A DNA stretch of 64,000 bases from Chloroflexota bacterium (GTDB lineage Bacteria > Chloroflexota > Dehalococcoidia > GIF9 > AB-539-J10): positions 4,446 to 68,445 of the forward strand of contig DAITOK010000004.1 of the NCBI GenBank assembly GCA_036834125.1, read 5' to 3'. Of this stretch, positions 40,202 to 50,440 are shown in pieces. Position numbers and translations under genes: made by a program. Each line of letters starts with the position of its first letter. Position 1 is the stretch's first letter. A model generated the notes under the pieces. That model saw only the letters and a list, made by a program, of their open reading frames with translations, was not told the DNA's origin and did not search any database.

Positions 40202-40325
40202 AACAAGTTCTAGTTTTGCCTACTATTTCACAAAGATACACTAATGTATCCGTACTTGGATGGCTTCAAGTATGGGACTTTTATAATAAAGACTTTATGT
40301 GAATCCCCCAGGAGGTGAATTAGTT

Positions 40326-41669
40326 ATGGATGGACAGAAAGAAAAGAAGGTGATAAACCGTCTTCAATCAATGTACCCGCTCAGGAATAAAGTAAATGAG
40401 ACATACCTAAAAAGTATTGAAGCTATAAAAGCAGGCAAGCCTGCTGTTTGGGCTATGCTCAACTTCTATTATGGTGACCCAATTCTGAAAGCCATGGATA
40501 TAGAAGTGGTCTATCCTGAGAACTATGGTGCTCTTGCCGCAGCTGTAGGTGTCGCCCAGCAATACCTAGATCGAGCTATTGCTGAGGGTTTTCCTACTCA
40601 TCTTTGCGGCTATAGCCTGACCACCATAGGCTACACGGCTAGGATGATGAAGGATTTGAAAGGGCAAATACCGCCGGAAGCACCCGTTGGGGGAATGCCC
40701 AAGCCACTATTTTTGCTGTCCTCGGCAGCTATATGTGATGCAAGATACAAGTGGTTCCAAGCATTGGGGCGCTATATGGATGTTCCGGTCTGGCCATTAG
40801 AAGCTCCCATCCCCGGCATCAAAGAATTTTCAATTGGGGGCTATTATGAAAGGATGGTGGAGCTGGGAGTAAAGCACCTGAGGGACTTTGTGGCTTTTGT
40901 CGAAAAGATGGTGGGCAGGAAGATGGATTGGGACAAGCTGAACAAAATGGCGAATCTCATGATAGAGATCAATCGCGTTTGGCACGAGATCAACGAACTG
41001 CGTAAAGTAAAGCCATGCCCTATGCACAGCCGAGACTTCTGGAGTGCCATGCCTGCCGCTTTGTTCTTAGCTGGCGACCTTGAGGACTCACTGAAGCTCT
41101 ACCAGAATATGTATCAGGAGGTAAAAGAGAGGGTCAACAGCCATATGGGTGCCATCCCCAATGAGAAATACCGTTTGGTGTTTGCCGAGCTTCCTCCTTG
41201 GCACAGCCTGGGCTTTTTCGACAAACTGGCAGAGAGGGGATGGAATTTCGTCATGGAGAGCTTTGGTTATCATCCGCCCATACCCCTGGATCTCAGTAAG
41301 GTCAGTGACCCTCTTGAGCGCATTACCAGATTCAGTCTCCAATTCCTTGTTGGCTACTACGAGGATGCCCGAAAACACAACGCGATTGGCGGCACCTCTG
41401 CTTATCCTTACCTGAAGTTTGCTAAGGAATGGAGATGCGATGGAGCACTCCTTCATCCCCTCATCAGTTGCCGCAGTGCCTCGACACACCTTCCCTATGT
41501 TTCAAACATGCTCATGGAGAAGCTCAGGGTCCCCTCCTTAACCATAGAAGGTGATATCGTAGATCTTCGCTTGTTTAACCCGGAAGATGCCCTAGCTAAG
41601 GCAGAGCCATTCGAGGAAATCTTGGAACACTATAGAAAGGTCAGAAGACTGGAAGGGTTTGACTGGTGA
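40326..41669 (+). CDS. 2-hydroxyacyl-CoA dehydratase / benzoyl-CoA reductase family subunit (HgdA/BcrB-like)
   Basis: About 447 aa from ATG 40326, which sits 8 nt after AGGAGGTG. The family is recognised by overall similarity and conserved Cys residues. Confidence 0.75.
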   Translation: MDGQKEKKVINRLQSMYPLRNKVNETYLKSIEAIKAGKPAVWAMLNFYYGDPILKAMDIEVVYPENYGALAAAVGVAQQYLDRAIAEGFPTHLCGYSLTTIGYTARMMKDLKGQIPPEAPVGGMPKPLFLLSSAAICDARYKWFQALGRYMDVPVWPLEAPIPGIKEFSIGGYYERMVELGVKHLRDFVAFVEKMVGRKMDWDKLNKMANLMIEINRVWHEINELRKVKPCPMHSRDFWSAMPAALFLAGDLEDSLKLYQNMYQEVKERVNSHMGAIPNEKYRLVFAELPPWHSLGFFDKLAERGWNFVMESFGYHPPIPLDLSKVSDPLERITRFSLQFLVGYYEDARKHNAIGGTSAYPYLKFAKEWRCDGALLHPLISCRSASTHLPYVSNMLMEKLRVPSLTIEGDIVDLRLFNPEDALAKAEPFEEILEHYRKVRRLEGFDW

Positions 41670-41716
41670 TACACTTGGGTTTCAACTGACATTTCAACCG
41701 ACAAGGAGGCGCACAG

Positions 41717-42883
41717 ATGCCAGACAAAACGAAAGGTCTCAAGAAAGCTCGAGAAATTTATTTGAATCGTTCGCAGAGAGTCAGAGAGCTCAAGGCGGCG
41801 GGGAAAAGGATAATAGGCTATCCCTGTGTCTATGTGCCGCTGGAGATGCTCACCGCTCTTGACCTCATTCCCTACCGAACGTGCGGCAACATCAGGGAAC
41901 CCGTCACCGAAGCGGATAAGGCGTTGCCTAGCTCATTTTGCCCTCTCATGCGCACCTGTCTCGATTGTGCTCTGAAAGGCAAAAACGATTTTTTGGATGG
42001 TATGGCAACGATTCACTCCAGCGACCCTCAGGAAAAGACTTCTCGTGTCTGGCAATCTTATACTAACTATTCCTACTACCATTTTATAGACATGCCCATC
42101 ACCGTTCGTCCCGAAGCCCTAGAATACTTCAGAAACCAGCTAAACGATTTCAGAAAGACTCTGGAGGCTTTCACCGGGAAGAAGTTGACCAGAGACAAGC
42201 TCGAGGCAGCTATTAAAGCTCACAATGAACAGCGGACCTTAGTGAGAAAATTGTACGAACTAACGAAGCCATCACTACCATTCATCTCGGGAACAGAAAT
42301 CGTTCAGGTAGTAAAGGCTTTAGAAAGCTTGCCTGTAACTGATGCGAATGACCTTTTAACAGAGGTCATAAGCGAAGTACAAGACCGCACCGATAAACCC
42401 CAGAAAAAGCCAGCACGTCTTCTGATATGGAGTAGTACTCTTGATGATGCCGACATCATGCAAGTATTTGAGGCTAAGGCTAATGTGGTGATGAACGAAA
42501 GCTGTGGCGGTATTAGAGCTTATAGAGGTATGGTGAAATTGACCGCTGACCCATTGGAGGGGCTTGCCAACTACTATCTCAACGAAATCACCTGCGCCCG
42601 CACGTTCAGGCAGGCTACTCTCGGTGAAACCAAAAAAGACTACATTCGAGACCTCCAGAGTCGTTTTGGCTATTTCAAAGGTATCATCCAAGATTGGAAA
42701 ATCAATGGTGTCATAATGCTGCTTGTTAGATATTGTGACCCGTTTGCCTTTGAAATGCCATCGCTAAAAGATTACTTGGACAGCATTGGTGTCCCCAGCA
42801 CATATATAGAATATGACTATTCCCTAGGAACCCTAGCCCCATTAAGGATCAGGGTCGAAGCTTTCCTTGAGACGCTGAGTTAA
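41717..42883 (+). CDS. 2-hydroxyacyl-CoA dehydratase / benzoyl-CoA reductase family subunit (HgdB/BcrC-like)
   Basis: 388 aa with GYPCVYVPLEMLTALDLIP and multiple conserved Cys residues, typical of the D-component family. Confidence 0.75.
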   Translation: MPDKTKGLKKAREIYLNRSQRVRELKAAGKRIIGYPCVYVPLEMLTALDLIPYRTCGNIREPVTEADKALPSSFCPLMRTCLDCALKGKNDFLDGMATIHSSDPQEKTSRVWQSYTNYSYYHFIDMPITVRPEALEYFRNQLNDFRKTLEAFTGKKLTRDKLEAAIKAHNEQRTLVRKLYELTKPSLPFISGTEIVQVVKALESLPVTDANDLLTEVISEVQDRTDKPQKKPARLLIWSSTLDDADIMQVFEAKANVVMNESCGGIRAYRGMVKLTADPLEGLANYYLNEITCARTFRQATLGETKKDYIRDLQSRFGYFKGIIQDWKINGVIMLLVRYCDPFAFEMPSLKDYLDSIGVPSTYIEYDYSLGTLAPLRIRVEAFLETLS

Positions 42884-42906
42884 CAGTAGTCCGCGAGGAG
42901 GCTTAC

Positions 42907-43749
42907 TTGTATTTCGCTGGTGTTGATATAGGCTCAACCATGACCAAGGTTGTGCTCATAGACAAGAGCAACAACTTACTTGCAACCATCAAAGGTCCCA
43001 CCGGTCCCGAGTATCGCCAACTTGCCAACGAAGTCATGTGGCAGGCGCTTAAGCAAGCGAAGTTACGGATTGAAGATATCTCTTACATTGTAGCTACAGG
43101 CTATGGACGGCTCAATGTACCTTTCGCGGACTGCCAGATAACAGAGCTTTCTTGTCATGCCAAAGGCGTGTCCAGTCTTTTTCCCAACGTCAGGACGGCA
43201 ATTGATATAGGCGGCCAAGATGCTAAGTGCATGAAAATTGACAAAGGCAAACTCGTCAGCTTCGTCATGAACGATAAGTGTGCTGCTGGCACCGGCAGAT
43301 TTCTTGAGGTGACAGCATCTGCGCTAGACATCCGATTAGAAGACATGGGAGATATTTCCTTAAATGCCACCAAGAAAATCCACATAAGCAACTTATGCAC
43401 TGTCTTCGCCCAGCAAGAAGTAGTGAGCCTCCTTTCTCGCGGAGAAAAGCTGGAAAACATTCTAGCTGGACTGCACGATGCCTTGGCTAGCCGCGTAGCC
43501 ACACTGGCACGGCGGCTTAATATAGAGCCTGATGTAGTACTCACCGGTGGCGTGGCTAAGAATACAGGCATGGTCAGGGCAATGAAAGAAAGCTTGGGGT
43601 ACGAAATCCTTGTTCCAGACGAACCGCTCATCACCGGCGCACTTGGTGCTGCCATCCGGGCAAAGGAAATCTATATGAATGCCATGGCGGTGGGAGAGAT
43701 GCTGCCTAAAAAGACGCGACGGCTGGAAAAAGCTACCTTCTTCTGTTAG
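42907..43749 (+). CDS. acyl-CoA dehydratase activase / BadF-BadG-BcrA-BcrD family ATPase, copy 1
   Basis: 280-aa ASKHA fold with GVDIGSTMTKVV at the N-terminus and a CAAGTGRF cluster-helix motif. Confidence 0.85.
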   Translation: MYFAGVDIGSTMTKVVLIDKSNNLLATIKGPTGPEYRQLANEVMWQALKQAKLRIEDISYIVATGYGRLNVPFADCQITELSCHAKGVSSLFPNVRTAIDIGGQDAKCMKIDKGKLVSFVMNDKCAAGTGRFLEVTASALDIRLEDMGDISLNATKKIHISNLCTVFAQQEVVSLLSRGEKLENILAGLHDALASRVATLARRLNIEPDVVLTGGVAKNTGMVRAMKESLGYEILVPDEPLITGALGAAIRAKEIYMNAMAVGEMLPKKTRRLEKATFFC

Positions 43750-43757
43750 GAGCAACC

Positions 43758-44561
43758 ATGACCTGGGCTATGGGTATTGATATTGGCTCGGCATATAGCA
43801 AAGGTGTCATAATCAAAAATTTTGAGTTTGTAGCTTCATATATAGTCATATCGGGAGCCAATTATCGAGCATCTGCCGATACTATAAGGACAGAGTTATT
43901 AAGAAAGGCAAACCTTATCCAAAAAGACCTAGCCAATATTGTAGCTACTGGCTGCGGTGCTGATAATGTCTATTTTGCTAGCCAAAAGGCAAGCGACATA
44001 GTTTGCACTGCACGGGGCATAAACAATGTGTTTCCACAAGTCAGAACTGTGATTGATGTAGCCAGTCAATCCACTAGAGTAATACGGCTGAACGGAGAAG
44101 GAATTGTAACTAACTTTACCGTGAGCGAGAAATGCGCTGCTGGTGGTGGACGTTTTATTGAAGTTATCGCCAACGTCTTGAGGGTAAGTGTGAATGACTT
44201 CAGTTCGCTGGCAGCCAAATCGAAAAACCCTATTACGTTTGGTACGGGCTGTGCTGTCTTCGGCGAATCTGAGGCTATTACTAGGATAAGTGAGGGCACA
44301 TCCAAAGAAGATATTGCTGCCGGTGCTAACAAGGCTCTGGCAAGCAAGATCTCTGCTTTGGTCAAGAAGACTAAGCTAGAGGAGCCCTATGCCATCTGTG
44401 GCGGCGGCGCTCTCAACAACACTCTCATCAAAGCTATAGAGGACGAATTGAACACGAAGCTATTAACACCACCACATCCCCAATTTATTACTGCCCTTGG
44501 CGCTGCCATAATCGCCGCAACATCAGCCATACCCGAACTCAGCAAAGAAACGCAGAGCTAA
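43758..44561 (+). CDS. BadF-BadG-BcrA-BcrD family ATPase, copy 2
   Basis: 267 aa with GIDIGSAYSKGV at the N-terminus and CAAGGGRF. It is a paralog of the preceding gene and sits 8 nt downstream of it. Confidence 0.8.
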   Translation: MTWAMGIDIGSAYSKGVIIKNFEFVASYIVISGANYRASADTIRTELLRKANLIQKDLANIVATGCGADNVYFASQKASDIVCTARGINNVFPQVRTVIDVASQSTRVIRLNGEGIVTNFTVSEKCAAGGGRFIEVIANVLRVSVNDFSSLAAKSKNPITFGTGCAVFGESEAITRISEGTSKEDIAAGANKALASKISALVKKTKLEEPYAICGGGALNNTLIKAIEDELNTKLLTPPHPQFITALGAAIIAATSAIPELSKETQS

Positions 44562-44640: not shown

Positions 44641-44713
44641 TTTTATCTTGGTTGACTTGTTCGCAGGTAACTGACCTGTGACAGCAAAAAGAAGTTTACC
44701 AAAGCTGGAGGGC

Positions 44714-45271
44714 ATGAGGGTAGTAATCACAAGCCTTATCGCGGTCATTATAATAGCCTTAGTCTCGTTTCTGCCAGCTTTCGCCCAGGAGAGGGGCACA
44801 ATCACTATCACCATGACTGGGGTAAGTGAAATTTCCATCACTCTGGATAAAACGGAATGGGCTTTGGGGAACGTAACTCCAAACACTGAATATAAGACAA
44901 GTCCGCCGGTAGAATGGTGCACTTTGACGGTACAGGGCAATTGTAAGGTGAACACATATATTGAGGGGGAAGATGCAACATGGATAGCTAATCCCAGCGA
45001 ATATAGGTGGACATTGAGCAATGATGGTAGTAATGGGGAACATATATATGGATTATGGTTTCGCATATCGCGTGATGCTATGCGAGGACCAAGAGGGGAC
45101 GGCTATGTTCCTATCAACAAAACACAAAGTGAATTCTGGCCGTATGCAGGAGGGTCACCTCTCGCTCCCAATGCCACCAAGAAATTTGGGCTAGCATTGC
45201 TGACCCCCACCCGCTTCTACAGCGGCAGGCAGATGCAAACCCGCATCATCATAAGCGCTGTGGCTGCCTGA
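44714..45271 (+). CDS. secreted hypothetical protein (N-terminal signal peptide)
   Basis: The start at MRVVITSLIAVIIIALVSFLPAFAQE fits a signal peptide with an AFA-QE cleavage site. It has no known domain and is Asn/Thr/Gly-rich. Confidence 0.5.
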   Translation: MRVVITSLIAVIIIALVSFLPAFAQERGTITITMTGVSEISITLDKTEWALGNVTPNTEYKTSPPVEWCTLTVQGNCKVNTYIEGEDATWIANPSEYRWTLSNDGSNGEHIYGLWFRISRDAMRGPRGDGYVPINKTQSEFWPYAGGSPLAPNATKKFGLALLTPTRFYSGRQMQTRIIISAVAA

Positions 45272-45831
45272 TGATAGGTTATATCAAGTCAGCTGGGCTC
45301 CTGGCTGTTCTATTGTTTGTCTCTTTTCCAACGTTTAGTCTGGCTCAAAGCGTTAACTTCAGCGTTTTCCCCACTGAGGTAAGTATCAGTAACTTGGCTA
45401 CAGGCGAAGCTGCACAATTTCAGCTGACCATTCATAATAAGGAATTGGCAACTCACAATTTCACTCTTACTACTTTTCAGCCGTCAGAAGCTCAAAGAAG
45501 ACAGGATATGGGCGAATTTCCCGATGCTAATTGGATAAGCTTCTCCCCTACTAAAATCCAGGTGCCTACCCAGTCCCAAGCCAATGTAACGGTAACACTC
45601 GCTGTCCCGCGAGAGAAAAAATGGGCAGACAAAAACTGGGAAATATGGCTGGGAGTCGCCCCCGAATCCATTGACCTGGTGGGGGTAAAGTTTTATGTTC
45701 GTCTGCTGGTATCTACAAAGCCTGAAGGCAGAGGCGAATTCATGATAAGACTGTTCATTGCGATTGCCATAACCATAGTACTTCTTAGCTATGGCGTCTA
45801 TTATTTCACCCACAAAGTCAAGCCCAAATAG
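45271..45831 (+). CDS. hypothetical surface protein: signal peptide plus C-terminal TM anchor with basic tail
   Basis: 186 aa. The N-terminus LLAVLLFVSFPTFSLAQS is a signal peptide. The C-terminus IRLFIAIAITIVLLSYGVYYFTHKVKPK is a TM helix with a KVKPK tail. Its start overlaps the previous stop (ATGA). Confidence 0.5.
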   Translation: MIGYIKSAGLLAVLLFVSFPTFSLAQSVNFSVFPTEVSISNLATGEAAQFQLTIHNKELATHNFTLTTFQPSEAQRRQDMGEFPDANWISFSPTKIQVPTQSQANVTVTLAVPREKKWADKNWEIWLGVAPESIDLVGVKFYVRLLVSTKPEGRGEFMIRLFIAIAITIVLLSYGVYYFTHKVKPK

Positions 45832-45890
45832 CCATTAAGCCCCAACGTAAGTCCAAAGTCATAAATATCCTTTCTCTCCGAGTGTCATAG

Positions 45891-45933
45891 TACTAAATTC
45901 TGGTGCAAAACAGTACTGACAGGTGATTCCTAC
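45891..45933 (+). repeat. conserved ~45-nt motif with palindrome CAGTACTG, copy 1 (upstream of ECF sigma gene)
   Basis: tactaaattctggtgcaaaacagtactgacaggtgattcc. It matches the reverse complement of 47686-47740. Both copies are in the same orientation relative to their downstream gene. Confidence 0.65.
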
Positions 45934-45993
45934 ATGATCGATTAGCTGATATGCTGAAAACGTAGATAGTACAACCGCATAGACAGGGGCGAC

Positions 45994-46593
45994 ATGAAAG
46001 TAGCTGAACATACGTTGCGAGGTTATGAAACTCAACTAATCAAAAGATTGCGCGCGGGTGATAACGCAGCCAAAGAGGAATTTTATAACCTTTACAGGAA
46101 CAGGATTTATTTTCTGGTATCAGAGCAAGTAGGACGAAACCATGCCGTAACTGAAGACTTGGTTCAAGAAGTATTTGTTGCTGCCTTGAGTTCACTACAC
46201 AAATTCCGTGGTGACAGCCAGCTTTACACTTGGCTACGCAGTATCGCACTTCACAAAATAAACGATTATCATCGTCACCAAGCGCGAGAGCCTCAATGCA
46301 AGAAATCGCCCCCTGATTTTAGTAGCGTACAACTAGAACGAGTCTCGGACGACGAACCTGCAACCTATACTGAGATGGAGTCCGAAGAACTTCGCCAGTC
46401 AGTTAACCAAGCCTTGGCAAGTTTGCCTCAAGATTATCAAGAAGTTTTAGTGTTAAAATACCTCAAAGGTATGCCCGTGTTAGCCATAAGTCAAGTTATG
46501 GGCCGCTCACCAAAGTCAGTCGAGGGATTACTGGCACGAGCCCGGAAGGCTATGAAAGACAACTGGGAAGAGAACAATCACGACGAACTGTAA
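45994..46593 (+). CDS. ECF-type RNA polymerase sigma-70 factor (sigma-24 family)
   Basis: 199 aa with region 2 (YNLYRNRIYFLV...DLVQEVFV) and region 4 (VLVLKYLKGMPVLAISQVMGRSPKSVEGLLARARK). Confidence 0.85.
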   Translation: MKVAEHTLRGYETQLIKRLRAGDNAAKEEFYNLYRNRIYFLVSEQVGRNHAVTEDLVQEVFVAALSSLHKFRGDSQLYTWLRSIALHKINDYHRHQAREPQCKKSPPDFSSVQLERVSDDEPATYTEMESEELRQSVNQALASLPQDYQEVLVLKYLKGMPVLAISQVMGRSPKSVEGLLARARKAMKDNWEENNHDEL

Positions 46594-46636
46594 ATTTCAG
46601 CCTACACCAGCACAGGTAGAAAAACTAGGACGACAA

Positions 46637-47653
46637 CTAAGACACAATCTTCTTTACTGCCTGGAAAGCATTAACCAAACCATGCCCAACGCCTGATGTT
46701 GCCATAGGAGTGCAACTATTTTCAATTGCCCAGCGTACTTCGTCATTGAGCAAGCCATTGCCGTTACTATCTTCAGCAACGCTGAAAACCAAGGCAGCTA
46801 CTCCCGAGATGTGAGCTGCAGCTGCTGAGGTGCCGGTCTTGTACCCATATTGGTTGTCAGGCAATTCAGAATAGATATTAAAACCGGGGGCAGCTACATC
46901 TACCCAATCGCCATAGCTGGATAACAAAGCTAATGAATCATCTGCGTTGGTGCCTGCCACGGCAACACAATTAGCATAATAAGCTGGATAAGAAGGCAAC
47001 GACTTCCCCTTGTTGCCTGCTGCAGCTATAAGTATAGCTCCCCGGCTCCACGCGTAGTTGACTGCTTTCTGCAGTTCCAGCGACTCTGTCATGGATAAAC
47101 TCAAGTTTATAATCTTAGCTCCGCGGTCCACCGCCCAAATGATGCCCTTGGCGACTGCCGATGGTTCACACCTTCCGTCATCGTCAGCTACCTTCACGTT
47201 CATTAGCCGACATTCCGGAGCTACAGCAACAATAGTACCTGCCATGTGAGTTCCGTGCCCGTACAGGTCGTCGCTGGTGGGACTGTTGCTAAAATTAACT
47301 TCTACTACCACTCTATCAGCCAAATCTGGATTGCCTTTATCAATACCAGTATCCAACACAGCCACTACAATAGACTTGTCTCCCGTGGTTATCTGCCAGG
47401 CTTTCGTCACCTCTATCTTCTTTATCCCCCATCGCTTACTTAAATAACTATCATCCACAGAATACGTTGTCTTCGGAGAAGAGTTATAACTTGAGGAATC
47501 GCTATTGTTCACTTGCGATTCATAGTAGACTGGCACATAGCTATAAGCGGACGCGCTTTCCGTCGGAAATAAGACATCGTACACCATGCCGCCCACGAGT
47601 ATCACCTCAACCAAAGTAAGAGCTATAGCTAGACGATATTTTAGGTCCTTCAT
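46637..47653 (-). CDS. S8-family subtilisin-like serine peptidase with N-terminal membrane anchor
   Basis: The catalytic triad context is VAVLDTGID, HGTHMAG and GTSAAAAHISG. After MKDLKYR the protein has a hydrophobic N-terminal segment LAIALTLVEVILVGGMV. The start is ambiguous among 47653, 47662 and 47695. Confidence 0.8.
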   Translation of the reverse strand: MKDLKYRLAIALTLVEVILVGGMVYDVLFPTESASAYSYVPVYYESQVNNSDSSSYNSSPKTTYSVDDSYLSKRWGIKKIEVTKAWQITTGDKSIVVAVLDTGIDKGNPDLADRVVVEVNFSNSPTSDDLYGHGTHMAGTIVAVAPECRLMNVKVADDDGRCEPSAVAKGIIWAVDRGAKIINLSLSMTESLELQKAVNYAWSRGAILIAAAGNKGKSLPSYPAYYANCVAVAGTNADDSLALLSSYGDWVDVAAPGFNIYSELPDNQYGYKTGTSAAAAHISGVAALVFSVAEDSNGNGLLNDEVRWAIENSCTPMATSGVGHGLVNAFQAVKKIVS

Positions 47654-47685
47654 ATATATCATATATAACCAACTGCGAAAGCCGA

Positions 47686-47740
47686 TAGAAATCACCTATC
47701 GGTACCGTTTCAGTACTGTTTTGCTTAGAATTTAGTAATA
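47686..47740 (-). repeat. conserved motif with palindrome CAGTACTG, copy 2 (upstream of the subtilisin gene)
   Basis: The plus strand reads atcacctatcggtaccgtttcagtactgttttgcttagaatttagtaata. Its reverse complement matches copy 1 (tactaaattct..gcaaaacagtactga..aggtgatt). Confidence 0.65.
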
Positions 47741-47965: not shown

Positions 47966-47995
47966 TTGACATATAAGACAAAAGTTTGCTATAAT
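47966..47995 (+). promoter_or_regulatory. sigma70-consensus promoter upstream of the large surface esterase gene
   Basis: TTGACA (47966-47971), an 18-nt spacer, and TATAAT (47990-47995). This leaves a leader of about 270 nt before ATG 48269. Confidence 0.5.
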
Positions 47996-48268
47996 TTTTT
48001 AATTAAAGGCTATACACACAGGTAGGCTTTCTGAGTGTCGAGAGCGGGGTCGTCTAGTGTTTTCAGTCAATGGAAAAGTATCATCGGCAGCAGTTCCCCT
48101 ATCCTCGGAGTATCCAAAATTTCTAAAGCCTTATCTCCACCCTGTAGCCAATATTTGCTGCCATTTGGTTAGGCAATATCTGTAAAGGAGGTGAGAATAT
48201 CGGGCAAATCAATGTATTCGGCATCTTTACAGAAGATTAATGAATTTAAGTAAAAGGGAGGAGGGAAA

Positions 48269-50440
48269 ATGGCATTAAAAAGATATTGTATTATTGCTGT
48301 TTTGGTAATTGTCGCGTTGCTGTTGCCCATAGGGGGTCAAGTTGGGGCTGGACAAGGCAACATAACGCTCACGCTAGATTGGATGATGTATGGCGGATAC
48401 AATCGTACATATGGATATTACGTCCCGACAGGTTACAACTCTAGCGGAGGCCCGGTTCCTCTGCTATTTTCGTTTCATGGTCTGGGCAGCAATGGACAGG
48501 CACAAGAGTACTTAACCAGCTTTGCTGAACTTGCCGAACAGGAAGGCTTTATTGCCGTATTTCCGTACGCTACGAATATACCCGGATACCATCCCATCCT
48601 GCCAACGTGGCTTCCCAATTACGGCATTCAGTGGAACCTGGATGGACCAGGGTCAATGCAATACTACTACGATGTTGATGACCTGGGATTTGTTTCGGCG
48701 TTAGTTGACAAATTTACCGCCGACTACAACATCACCCGTGGTCGCATATACGCAACCGGGATGTCCAACGGCGCCATGTTTTCATACTTCCTAGCCATGA
48801 AGCTGCCTGGCGTCTTTGCTGGCATTGCAGCAGTAACCTCTCCAATGACTCTAAATATGTGGGAGTACGATTTCGACACAGATGTTGGCTGTCCGGTAAC
48901 CGTGATTTTGATACAGGGCACACATGACCCCATCGTTCCTTATAATGGCCTGCCAAACGTAACCGGATCGGTTGACCAGACTATTGACTATTGGAAAGAT
49001 GCCAATAATATAACGACGGAACCAGTGGAAACGACCTTTGACGGATATCCGAATGACCCGACGAAAGTTTACCGCTATGTTTATGGTGGGGGTGCTGACA
49101 ATACCGAGGTAATACTGTATAAGGTTGACTTGGGCGGACACACTTGGCCCGGATCATATCAATATGCTCCTGAGGCAGTCATTGGCAAGACCTCTTACGA
49201 GATCAACGCTACTGAGAAGATATGGGAACATTTCGAAGCTCATTCATTACCACCGCTACCGCCTGTTCGAAGGTCGCCAAAAGTGGTAACACCGGGAGAA
49301 GAATTTGAGGTAAAAATTAGCTTCGCTGCCCCTGAGGGTGCATTCCAGAACATCAACCTCACTGACAGTGCTCCGACGGGCTGGACAGTAAGCGTTAATA
49401 CTACCTGGCCTGACCCGGATGCAGACACAGCCCAGACTCCAGCGGCTAATCAAGCGCAATATATTTGGAACGGCCCCTACAACAATAACACATGGTTCAC
49501 AGCAGTTTACAAGGTGAAGGTGCCTGATGACGCTGCACCCGGGAACTACACTTTCAGTGGTTTACTCAGGTACTCCGTTGGCGCAAACAACCAAGAGGCA
49601 GCAGTGAGAGGCAACACCCGTGTGAGAGTGGTGGACAGATATACTCTCACTGTCAATAGCGCCGCCGGGGGCAGTGTCACCATGCCAGGCACAGGGAACT
49701 TCACTTATCGCGGTGGAAAGGTGGTCTACCTGGCTGCTACACCCAGTTCTGGCTATAAATTCAGCCAATGGTCAGGCGATAATAGCACCGTGCAGATTGT
49801 TGGTACGGACCCCAAGTACGCCATCATTACCATGAACGGCAACTACACAATCACCGCCGAATTTGAGAAGATACCACCAACCGTTAGTACAACAACTATC
49901 TATTCCGGCGATGTCGGAACTGATTCGGCTAACCTCAAGATGTCATATACCATGGGTGGCTACGGTTCGGTAGATGTCCGCTTCGCATATAAGAAGTCCA
50001 CTGACACGGAATGGAGTAATACCTCCTGGACATCCAGATCGGCAGCAGGAACATACAACCAAACAGTTACCGGTCTTAGCCCTGCTACAACTTATCAGTA
50101 TAAGGCGCAACTCAGATACGACAGCATTGTGATTGAGGGGGCTGTGAAGCAGTTCACGACAGCGGCAATACCGGGCGGCGGAGGAGGTGGATGCTTCATT
50201 GCCACGGCAGCCTACGGAACCCCCACCGCAGTACAGCTCAACGTGTTGCGAGAGTTCCGAGATGCTGTGTTGCTGAAGAGTGCCCTAGGCTCTCGACTTG
50301 TTGACCTCTACTACAAAGCCAGCCCGCCGATTGCGGAATTCATATCACAGCACGACGTCCTGATGACCGTCGTCAGGGAGCTTCTAGTGGAGCCGATTGT
50401 GTGGTTGCTTAAAGCTACGAGCGTTATATGGCACAGCTGA
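48269..50440 (+). CDS. secreted multi-domain protein with five domains in series
   Basis: The 723-aa protein starts with the signal peptide MALKRYCIIAVLVIVALLLPIGG. The first domain is a PHB-depolymerase-family esterase with the GxSxG lipase box GMSNGAMFSYF and an HG upstream. A beta-sandwich domain follows. Next is a divergent InlB B-repeat (YTLTVNSAAGGSVTMPG...YLAATPSSGYKFSQWSGD). A fibronectin-III-like domain follows. After a Gly6 linker the last domain starts with CFIATAAYGT. Confidence 0.8.
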   Translation: MALKRYCIIAVLVIVALLLPIGGQVGAGQGNITLTLDWMMYGGYNRTYGYYVPTGYNSSGGPVPLLFSFHGLGSNGQAQEYLTSFAELAEQEGFIAVFPYATNIPGYHPILPTWLPNYGIQWNLDGPGSMQYYYDVDDLGFVSALVDKFTADYNITRGRIYATGMSNGAMFSYFLAMKLPGVFAGIAAVTSPMTLNMWEYDFDTDVGCPVTVILIQGTHDPIVPYNGLPNVTGSVDQTIDYWKDANNITTEPVETTFDGYPNDPTKVYRYVYGGGADNTEVILYKVDLGGHTWPGSYQYAPEAVIGKTSYEINATEKIWEHFEAHSLPPLPPVRRSPKVVTPGEEFEVKISFAAPEGAFQNINLTDSAPTGWTVSVNTTWPDPDADTAQTPAANQAQYIWNGPYNNNTWFTAVYKVKVPDDAAPGNYTFSGLLRYSVGANNQEAAVRGNTRVRVVDRYTLTVNSAAGGSVTMPGTGNFTYRGGKVVYLAATPSSGYKFSQWSGDNSTVQIVGTDPKYAIITMNGNYTITAEFEKIPPTVSTTTIYSGDVGTDSANLKMSYTMGGYGSVDVRFAYKKSTDTEWSNTSWTSRSAAGTYNQTVTGLSPATTYQYKAQLRYDSIVIEGAVKQFTTAAIPGGGGGGCFIATAAYGTPTAVQLNVLREFRDAVLLKSALGSRLVDLYYKASPPIAEFISQHDVLMTVVRELLVEPIVWLLKATSVIWHS

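Follow-up and report, generated by a model that had tools for sequence, protein, structure and literature searches.

The esterase gene and the domains of its product

The window analysed here is a stretch of 64,000 nucleotides from a Chloroflexota bacterium of the class Dehalococcoidia (assembly GCA_036834125.1, contig DAITOK010000004.1, positions 4,446 to 68,445), and our subject is a gene within it whose product ends in a CFI-box, a C-terminal domain catalogued as NF041770. The open reading frame (ORF), 48269..50440 on the plus strand, begins with ATG behind a ribosome-binding site and encodes the 723 residues stated in an earlier, sequence-only reading of the window. The protein itself is unremarkable, one of a common surface-enzyme family of Dehalococcoidia type; what makes it interesting is the tail. 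The features of the locus are listed below, in window positions and with protein residues where they apply; pLDDT is the predicted local distance difference test score of AlphaFold and TM stands for transmembrane.

47966..47995, plus strand: promoter-like site, TTGACA and TATAAT with an 18-nt spacer containing TG; 12 of 12 consensus matches
48256..48265, plus strand: ribosome-binding site, GGGAGGAGGG, GGAGG-rich and strong, read straight from the DNA
48269..48352, plus strand: Sec-type signal peptide, residues 1 to ~28, with K4 and R5 in the n-region, a hydrophobic h-region and a cleavage-like site VGA/G
48371..49234, plus strand: alpha/beta-hydrolase esterase domain, residues 35-322 (Pfam/NCBIfam, AlphaFold, catalytic residues)
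49265..49630, plus strand: beta-sandwich, NPCBM_assoc/CARDB-like, residues 333-454 (weak Pfam match, E=1.2e-4; all-beta, pLDDT ~90)
49637..49873, plus strand: divergent InlB B-repeat (PF18998, Flg_new_2), residues 457-535 (Pfam and AlphaFold)
49880..50158, plus strand: FN3/Ig-like beta domain, residues 538-630 (AlphaFold strands; Foldseek match to Ig-FN3 tandems)
50174..50191, plus strand: Gly6 linker, residues 636-641 (read from the sequence; disordered in the model)
50192..50437, plus strand: CFI-box-CTERM domain (NF041770), TM-less subtype, C642 to S723 (NCBIfam match, AlphaFold)

The full-length AlphaFold model (pLDDT 86.4; predicted template modelling score, pTM, 0.72) divides the protein into an alpha/beta domain (residues 35-322), three all-beta domains (333-454, 457-535 and 538-630), a disordered linker (637-651) and terminal helices (652-722). 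This agrees with the succession of beta-sandwich, divergent InlB B-repeat, fibronectin-III-like domain and six-glycine run that the sequence-only reading had described behind the esterase. The Pfam matches to the stalk were of uneven strength: PF18998 scored 58.1 bits against a gathering score of 23.6 (E=8.7e-16, residues 458-535), which establishes membership, the weak NPCBM_assoc match spanned residues 340-377, and the FN3 match reached only E=0.095.

Pfam and NCBIfam placed residues 44-322 in the alpha/beta-hydrolase lineage of polyhydroxybutyrate (PHB) depolymerases and esterases. Of the esterase-domain models only the general one, Abhydrolase_2, was passed (30.2 bits, cut-off 23); NF050058 (type-1 scl-PHA depolymerase) covered model positions 6-276 of 276 with 136.7 bits, under its cut-off of 150, and both TIGR01840 (PHB depolymerase family esterase; 44.9 bits, cut-off 107.85) and PF10503 (20.6 bits, cut-off 23) also stayed below threshold. 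The nearest solved proteins by sequence and fold were 9J07, 8DAJ and fungal feruloyl esterases. The PHB depolymerase of Lihuaxuella thermophila (8DAJ), acetyl xylan esterase B of Aspergillus oryzae (AoAXEB, 9J07) and the feruloyl esterases 8JH8 and 8IY8 share the fold (TM-score ~0.72, target-normalised) and the catalytic order of oxyanion His, GxSxG Ser, Asp and His, but are only 20-25% identical to the window protein, which has in addition the beta-domain stalk and the CFI-box. This lineage and fold, with esterases as nearest structures, bear out the PHB-depolymerase/feruloyl-esterase assignment made from the sequence.

The serine box GMSNGAMFSYF lies at residues 164-174, as had been noticed, and the catalytic set of His70 (oxyanion), Ser166 (in GMSNG), Asp220 and His291 aligns with 9J07 and 8DAJ. 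These four residues are kept in 119, 119, 119 and 120 of the 120 best homologs in the alignment, so that the triad, whose completeness the earlier reading had left to be settled by alignment, is complete. Because the catalytic residues are complete and conserved and the confirmed fold has esterases as its nearest relatives, the best-supported account of the protein is a predicted active serine esterase of the PHB-depolymerase / CE1 acetyl-xylan / feruloyl-esterase lineage, with a substrate that is likewise a prediction.

The claim of a signal peptide also held: besides the K4/R5 n-region, the h-region CIIAVLVIVALLLPI reaches 3.35 in a 15-residue Kyte-Doolittle window, and AlphaFold shows residues 2-18 as helical, followed by disorder. 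The esterase would be exported, with cleavage expected near residue 28. The mature cargo (window 48353-50173) contains 16 N-X-S/T sequons, compared with 5.9 +/- 2.2 expected from 2000 shuffles; the enrichment is family-wide (median z 2.6 across 107 homologs) and the CFI-box is almost sequon-free. Judging from this enrichment, the exported part is probably N-glycosylated.

The CFI-box tail, its family and its carriers

From the Cys to the stop the tail measures exactly 82 residues; the C-terminal domain recognised in the sequence-only reading is real, although its length had been put at about 85. It opens at C642 with CFIATAAYGTP, continues through REFRD and YYKASPP, all three motifs as previously read, and ends in ...KATSVIWHS. 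The statement that the tail could not be assigned to a named family does not hold. The search of the tail with profile hidden Markov models that had been proposed as a check identified it as NCBIfam NF041770, CFI-box-CTERM: the whole protein scored 88.8 bits (cut-off 40), with residues 642-708 on model positions 1-67 of 69, and the tail scanned alone scored 93.9 bits against the same cut-off. The window protein shares with the family the CFIATAAYG, LRxFRD and YYxxSPPxA motifs and the C-terminal position, with no family-level difference.

The tail was rightly judged too weakly hydrophobic for a TM helix, since its top 19-residue Kyte-Doolittle window is 1.48 and includes three charges (R, E, E); the last 12 residues have a single Lys/Arg, so there is no basic cluster. 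As a whole it is hydrophobic, with a grand average of hydropathy of +0.59 here and +0.37 +/- 0.13 over 368 members, compared with -0.15 for the cargos. Structure prediction, also suggested earlier as a check, gave four helices for the isolated tail (pLDDT 79, pTM 0.66), and the Cys motif leads into amphipathic helices in the AlphaFold model.

A profile search with the tail retrieved 31,227 cluster representatives (50% identity) at E<=1e-3, of which 22,873 still passed at E<=1e-10, and contigs from one genome per species contain more than 600 exact copies of the peptide CFIATAAY; the possibility that the tail is unique to this one protein, raised in the sequence-only reading, can be set aside. 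The CFI-box is thus found in tens of thousands of protein clusters from Bacteria, Archaea, plasmids and, in a few cases, phages, and its position is nearly always C-terminal. The exact matches are mostly from Dehalococcoidia/Chloroflexota; other bacterial ones come from Hydrogenedentota, Nitrospirota, Desulfobacteraceae, Geobacter and a gammaproteobacterial symbiont, and the archaeal ones include ANME-1/Methanophagales, Ethanoperedens and Hadarchaeota. Several genomes carry many copies, frequently in tandem. The domain is already catalogued and named in one curated library, and NCBI gives close homologs such as P0298 and P0359 the name CFI-box-CTERM. It lacks a Pfam model and a solved structure, and the library of papers searched does not mention it: Pfam scans of diverse CFI tails at E<=10 returned nothing relevant, a PDB sequence-profile search with the tail and a Foldseek search of the tail model against the PDB gave 0 matches each, and a literature search on CFI-box, NF041770 and the motif strings found no papers on the domain.

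In an alignment of 52 sequences, fifteen positions never vary (C, F, I, A, T, A, Y, R, L, Y, Y, P, A, R, P). The opening motif takes the form CFIATAA[YF]G, with a Cys that is invariant in three family alignments and that is preceded by Gly in 97 of 143 members and by variable residues, including Pro and bulky ones, in the others. Two subtypes were distinguished among the best 143 representatives: 78 continue from the box into a TM helix and a basic cluster, and about 45%, the subtype to which the window protein belongs, are TM-less. The TM core begins 76-87 residues past the Cys in 121 of 124 TM-bearing tails, with about four basic residues in the following 12; this arrangement of TM core and trailing basic cluster would therefore place the box outside the cytoplasm, directly on the membrane. 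A signal-like hydrophobic N-terminus was present in 90 of 112 complete representatives, and the cargos on 74 diverse members are of extracellular types, including InlB B-repeats (37 of 74), beta-helix, PKD, CARDB, Ig, S8 subtilase, leucine-rich repeats, cadherin and lectins.

Among the 120 nearest esterase homologs, the same CFI tail was found in 111 (96 TM-less, 11 TM-bearing and four with a variant opening motif, one of them TM-bearing), a recurrence that argues against a chance pattern. The others end differently: three Bacillota proteins in LPXTG (P0279-P0281, including Pueribacillus), five in a plain TM helix with a basic cluster (P0292, P0296, P0348, P0349 and P0353), and one in the C-terminal domain of the type IX secretion system (T9SS; P0299). 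These proteins resemble the window protein in their catalytic domain (32-52% identity) and in the position of the anchor element, but their tails act by known mechanisms (sortase, stop-transfer anchor, PorU/T9SS), whereas the CFI-box is without one. Such swapping of anchors suggests that lineages place a surface anchor at this position, and in this comparison of sequences it is the strongest functional hint, one that points to surface tethering.

Proteins without a signal peptide, combined with partners of cytoplasmic type, also end in an NF041770 domain above cut-off. The following carriers were recorded:

Burkholderia plasmids: cold-shock domain, zinc ribbon and CFI-box, adjoining a Lar gene
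Haloquadratum plasmid PL47: Mrr-type nuclease, WYL and CFI-box, between HNH and restriction-endonuclease genes
5-kb Acinetobacter lwoffii plasmids: TPR-like CFI-box protein
Conjugative plasmids: 140-aa CFI-box proteins beside traG
RTX calcium-binding protein with CFI-box
Methanophagales and Hadarchaeota: zinc-ribbon/acidic CFI-box proteins
Viral contigs: HNH fusion and TPR fusions with CFI-box
Bacteria: free-standing 96-aa CFI-box protein with no recognisable export signal

The plasmid and phage-like genes (L086 4659-5240, L087 4233-5267, L085 1333-2184, L089 4800-5228, L091 4809-5228 and L093 4172-4726) often lie amid restriction, anti-restriction and toxin genes, and the cold-shock domain of the plasmid fusion also resembles the retron Se72 effector. 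The archaeal zinc-ribbon/acidic proteins and the 96-aa bacterial protein are encoded at L053 2321-2923, L065 9629-10246 and L082 2981-3271. In the cargo-less forms (P0148, P0246, L096) a signal peptide or lipoprotein signal is followed by the box, with or without a TM helix.

Some further sequences depart from the usual form. The very long proteins P0121-P0124, with two CFI-boxes, consist of two full units (signal peptide, cargo, CFI-box, TM helix) joined in frame, and are probably read-through fusions of tandem genes rather than true two-copy proteins. The mini CFI-box ORFs at L025 6252-10282 are C-terminal pieces of larger, frameshifted genes; the frameshifts are probably errors of long-read assembly and call for caution in counting stand-alone CFI-box proteins. 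Neither they nor P0055, a gene truncated beside an integrase, were included among the stand-alone forms. At L063 491-2146, from Nitrospirota, the ORF runs about 280 residues past the CFI-box and TM helix into a beta-rich, outer-membrane-protein-like region; either the CFI-box is internal here, which would be unusual, or two genes are read through as one.

Possible roles of the tail

We tentatively regard the protein as a Sec-exported, probably N-glycosylated esterase on a beta-domain stalk and Gly6 tether, with the CFI-box as its membrane-surface retention or assembly module. The catalytic domain would be carried by the three beta domains and the tether, and the CFI-box, an autonomous and unusually hydrophobic four-helix module, would lie on the membrane surface and keep the cargo cell-associated, the tail staying uncleaved. 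With the usual TM continuation missing here, retention would depend on the box itself, either through direct binding to the membrane interface or through association with membrane-anchored CFI-box proteins, including cargo-less ones. The signal-peptide-less and cargo-less forms, together with the lack of a recurrent neighbour gene, favour such an autonomous, membrane-proximal folded module over a disposable signal. The resemblance to sorting or anchoring domains noted in the sequence-only reading is in part plausible, given the swapped anchors in homologs, the TM helix with basic cluster that half of the family carries and the CPBP neighbour in orthologs described below, but the TM helix and basic cluster themselves are absent from this protein. 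No SLH or other known wall-binding module was matched in Pfam or NCBIfam at E<=1.

Several findings weigh against membrane-surface retention by the folded box. CFIATAAYG, the best-conserved segment, is of low confidence in the full-length AlphaFold model, and the invariant Cys, which is kept even where neighbouring motif residues vary, is given no role. The hydrophobic moment of the last helix (0.44) did not differ significantly from that of shuffles (0.40 +/- 0.12), and the idea of that helix as an amphipathic anchor was dropped for this reason. In orthologs from four contexts (39-69% identity), the divergent upstream neighbour encodes a 207-aa Rce1-like CPBP protein (PF02517), and on a short deltaproteobacterial contig the generic exosortase gene L050 1017-1919 (above the cut-off of TIGR02602 and closest to XrtC) is separated by 30 bp from a CFI-box gene of the TM-bearing subtype. 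The CPBP and exosortase adjacencies are suggestive of enzymatic processing.

Processing of this kind is central to a second reading, which we consider possible and less probable than retention by the intact box: the CFI-box would be a Cys-dependent sorting signal of the MYXO-CTERM/CGP-CTERM class, in which Cys642 is lipidated, a CPBP enzyme cuts distal to it and the esterase becomes lipid-anchored via Gly6-Cys, with the helical domain serving only as a recognition element. On both readings the tail would serve to tether the enzyme to the cell. There are precedents for the second: four C-terminal sorting signals, each with a Cys that does not vary, were assigned to CPBP enzymes (bioRxiv 10.1101/2023.06.07.544157), and cleavage of MYXO-CTERM by MrtX was shown to be Cys-dependent (PMC11980579). 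Like the MYXO-, CGP-, JDVT- and Synerg-CTERM signals, the CFI-box is C-terminal on exported surface proteins, has many paralogs per genome and opens with an invariant Cys, usually after Gly; its TM-bearing subtype likewise presents the motif, a TM helix and an Arg-rich cluster in this order. The tandem CFI-box copies within genomes, the choice-of-anchor pattern among homologs, the MrtA-like CPBP gene beside orthologs, the second CPBP gene with ICMT-like genes at L106 and the unrelated CFI-tailed cargo occupying the same CPBP slot at three loci are all consistent with this view.

The differences are, however, considerable. The MYXO-, CGP-, JDVT- and Synerg-CTERM signals span about 25-35 residues and place the motif right before the TM helix, with few residues between Cys and helix, whereas in the CFI-box about 65 residues of conserved, folded helical domain intervene, and the TM helix and basic cluster are often lacking. 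Tripartite signals in general (LPXTG, PEP-CTERM, MYXO-CTERM) pass from a short motif to a TM helix and a terminal Arg/Lys cluster, both absent from the window tail. The domain also occurs on cargo-less proteins, and on signal-peptide-less carriers that are not explained by a pure export-sorting tag.

The CPBP evidence itself cuts both ways. The gene is divergent to the esterase at the following orthologous loci:

L099, 5967-6590: CPBP gene
L101, 5965-6588: CPBP gene
L104, 4961-5581: CPBP gene
L106, 4182-5589: CPBP gene, with a second CPBP gene and three membrane methyltransferases at the locus

The CPBP proteins are 74-88% identical between these loci, and a fragment of the same gene was found at L001. 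Their best NCBIfam matches are the myxosortases MrtA (archaeomyxosortase), MrtJ and MrtS, with MrtA at 78-84 bits, far under the cut-off of 200. At L106 637-3113, just past the two CPBP genes, lie three tandem PEMT/ICMT-like methyltransferase genes and an S-adenosylmethionine methyltransferase gene; the best match of the three, protein-S-isoprenylcysteine O-methyltransferase, is sub-threshold. A metagenome scan with the CPBP protein revealed CPBP and PolX as a conserved backbone with a variable slot between them. Where enough upstream sequence was available, a CFI-tailed gene filled the slot at 21 of 44 loci, and at the other 23 the CPBP gene abuts PolX or unrelated genes are inserted, which argues that the adjacency reflects backbone synteny with a variable insert. 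Across all 80 CPBP loci the slot held this esterase 22 times and, three times, another cargo ending in a CFI tail of the TM-bearing kind; it may also hold a molybdopterin oxidoreductase or a CoA-transferase.

No CPBP gene was found within the window, and none was detected, in a crude search, beside the other 80 CFI loci. Over 81 CFI loci, with 10 kb on each side, nothing recurred beyond the CFI genes themselves; response regulators were present at seven loci and GspE/F at four to five. A Pfam scan of 66 multi-TM neighbours showed no recurrent protease or sortase among the top 25 families. GspE/GspF-like genes of type II secretion or type IV pili were seen within 10 kb at L044, L062, L067, L076 and L078, mostly in diderm lineages.

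A related and unlikely reading is that of an extended prokaryotic CaaX-type signal, in which the Cys of C-F-I-A would be lipidated, an Rce1-like CPBP protein, the product of the MrtA-like gene beside the orthologs, would remove the tail and ICMT-like capping of the new C-terminus might follow, giving lipid anchoring on either face of the membrane. C-F-I-A formally reads C-a-a-X, and Rce1-like and ICMT-like genes lie near the ortholog at L106. The eukaryotic CaaX box, however, forms the extreme C-terminus of cytosolic proteins, whereas 78 residues follow C-F-I-A here, and no prokaryotic protein prenyltransferase is implicated; the likeness is a lead only. If this reading were true, the family of about 31,000 clusters would supply the long-missing natural substrates of many Rce1/ICMT homologs in Bacteria and Archaea, and would make up a fifth Cys-dependent sorting system, far larger than the other four.

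We also think it improbable that the CFI-box is merely a self-association domain, with the esterase released as a soluble multimer and no retention. A small, hydrophobic, helical domain with a TM-less subtype would suit oligomerisation, as would its presence on cytoplasmic nucleic-acid-binding proteins, where oligomers are common. Such a role would nevertheless leave unexplained the TM anchor that directly adjoins the box in half of the family, and the bona fide surface anchors that occupy the same place in homologous esterases.

Classical extracellular polyhydroxyalkanoate depolymerases end in a substrate-binding domain, and a hydrophobic tail that binds the polymer surface or substrate could stand in for their C-terminal PHB-binding domain, which was not found in Pfam and NCBIfam scans of the window protein; as the same tail is borne by dozens of unrelated non-enzymatic cargos and by cytoplasmic proteins, we hold this to be very improbable. 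Least credible of all is self-processing of the Hedgehog/intein type, with Cys642 attacking the Gly641 carbonyl and the cargo passed to a nucleophile, for although the junction is Gly-Cys-Phe as in Hedgehog, with an invariant Cys and conserved Thr, Asp, Arg and Tyr residues, the prediction is all-helical instead of a Hint beta fold with a TxxH block, there is no conserved His, and the residue before the Cys varies to include Pro and bulky ones.

Many uncultured anaerobes have no conventional cell wall, and a mechanism for the CFI-box would account for the display of hydrolases and adhesins in these organisms; orphan Rce1/ICMT homologs of prokaryotes could also be given substrates in this way. 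The esterase offers a handy test case, since its cargo is easy to assay and only one Cys is critical.

Surroundings of the gene in the window

The esterase gene stands alone, with an S8 subtilase gene (46637-47695, minus strand) divergent upstream and the PolX gene downstream, and would form a single transcription unit. The promoter-like site is followed by a leader of about 270 nt. Consensus promoter-like sites were as numerous in the region as expected from shuffles, and that at 47966-47995 was the sole perfect one; an Rfam search of the 5' leader and gene region gave zero matches. Within the window, no sorting enzyme is encoded near the esterase and no second copy of the CFI-box was found. 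The upstream S8 subtilase was rejected as a tail-processing enzyme, S8 genes not being recurrent near CFI genes.

Downstream of the esterase the window keeps the backbone (PolX, enoyl-CoA hydratase, NMO, tRNA synthetase), while on the upstream side its place is taken by dehydratase genes and by those for two small exported proteins, an extracytoplasmic function (ECF) sigma factor and the subtilase. The stretch 44678-47695 encodes two family-less small exported or membrane proteins (197 and 186 aa, with a 1-nt overlap of their genes), the ECF sigma factor and the divergent membrane-anchored S8 subtilase, and may be an envelope-related cluster in place of the PolA-HGSNAT-CPBP block of related genomes. 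Next to it, at 40299-44561, is a 2-hydroxyacyl-CoA dehydratase set composed of two HGD-D subunits and two BcrAD/BadFG-type activator ATPases; 2-hydroxyacyl-CoA dehydratase genes were likewise seen on the source contig (L081).

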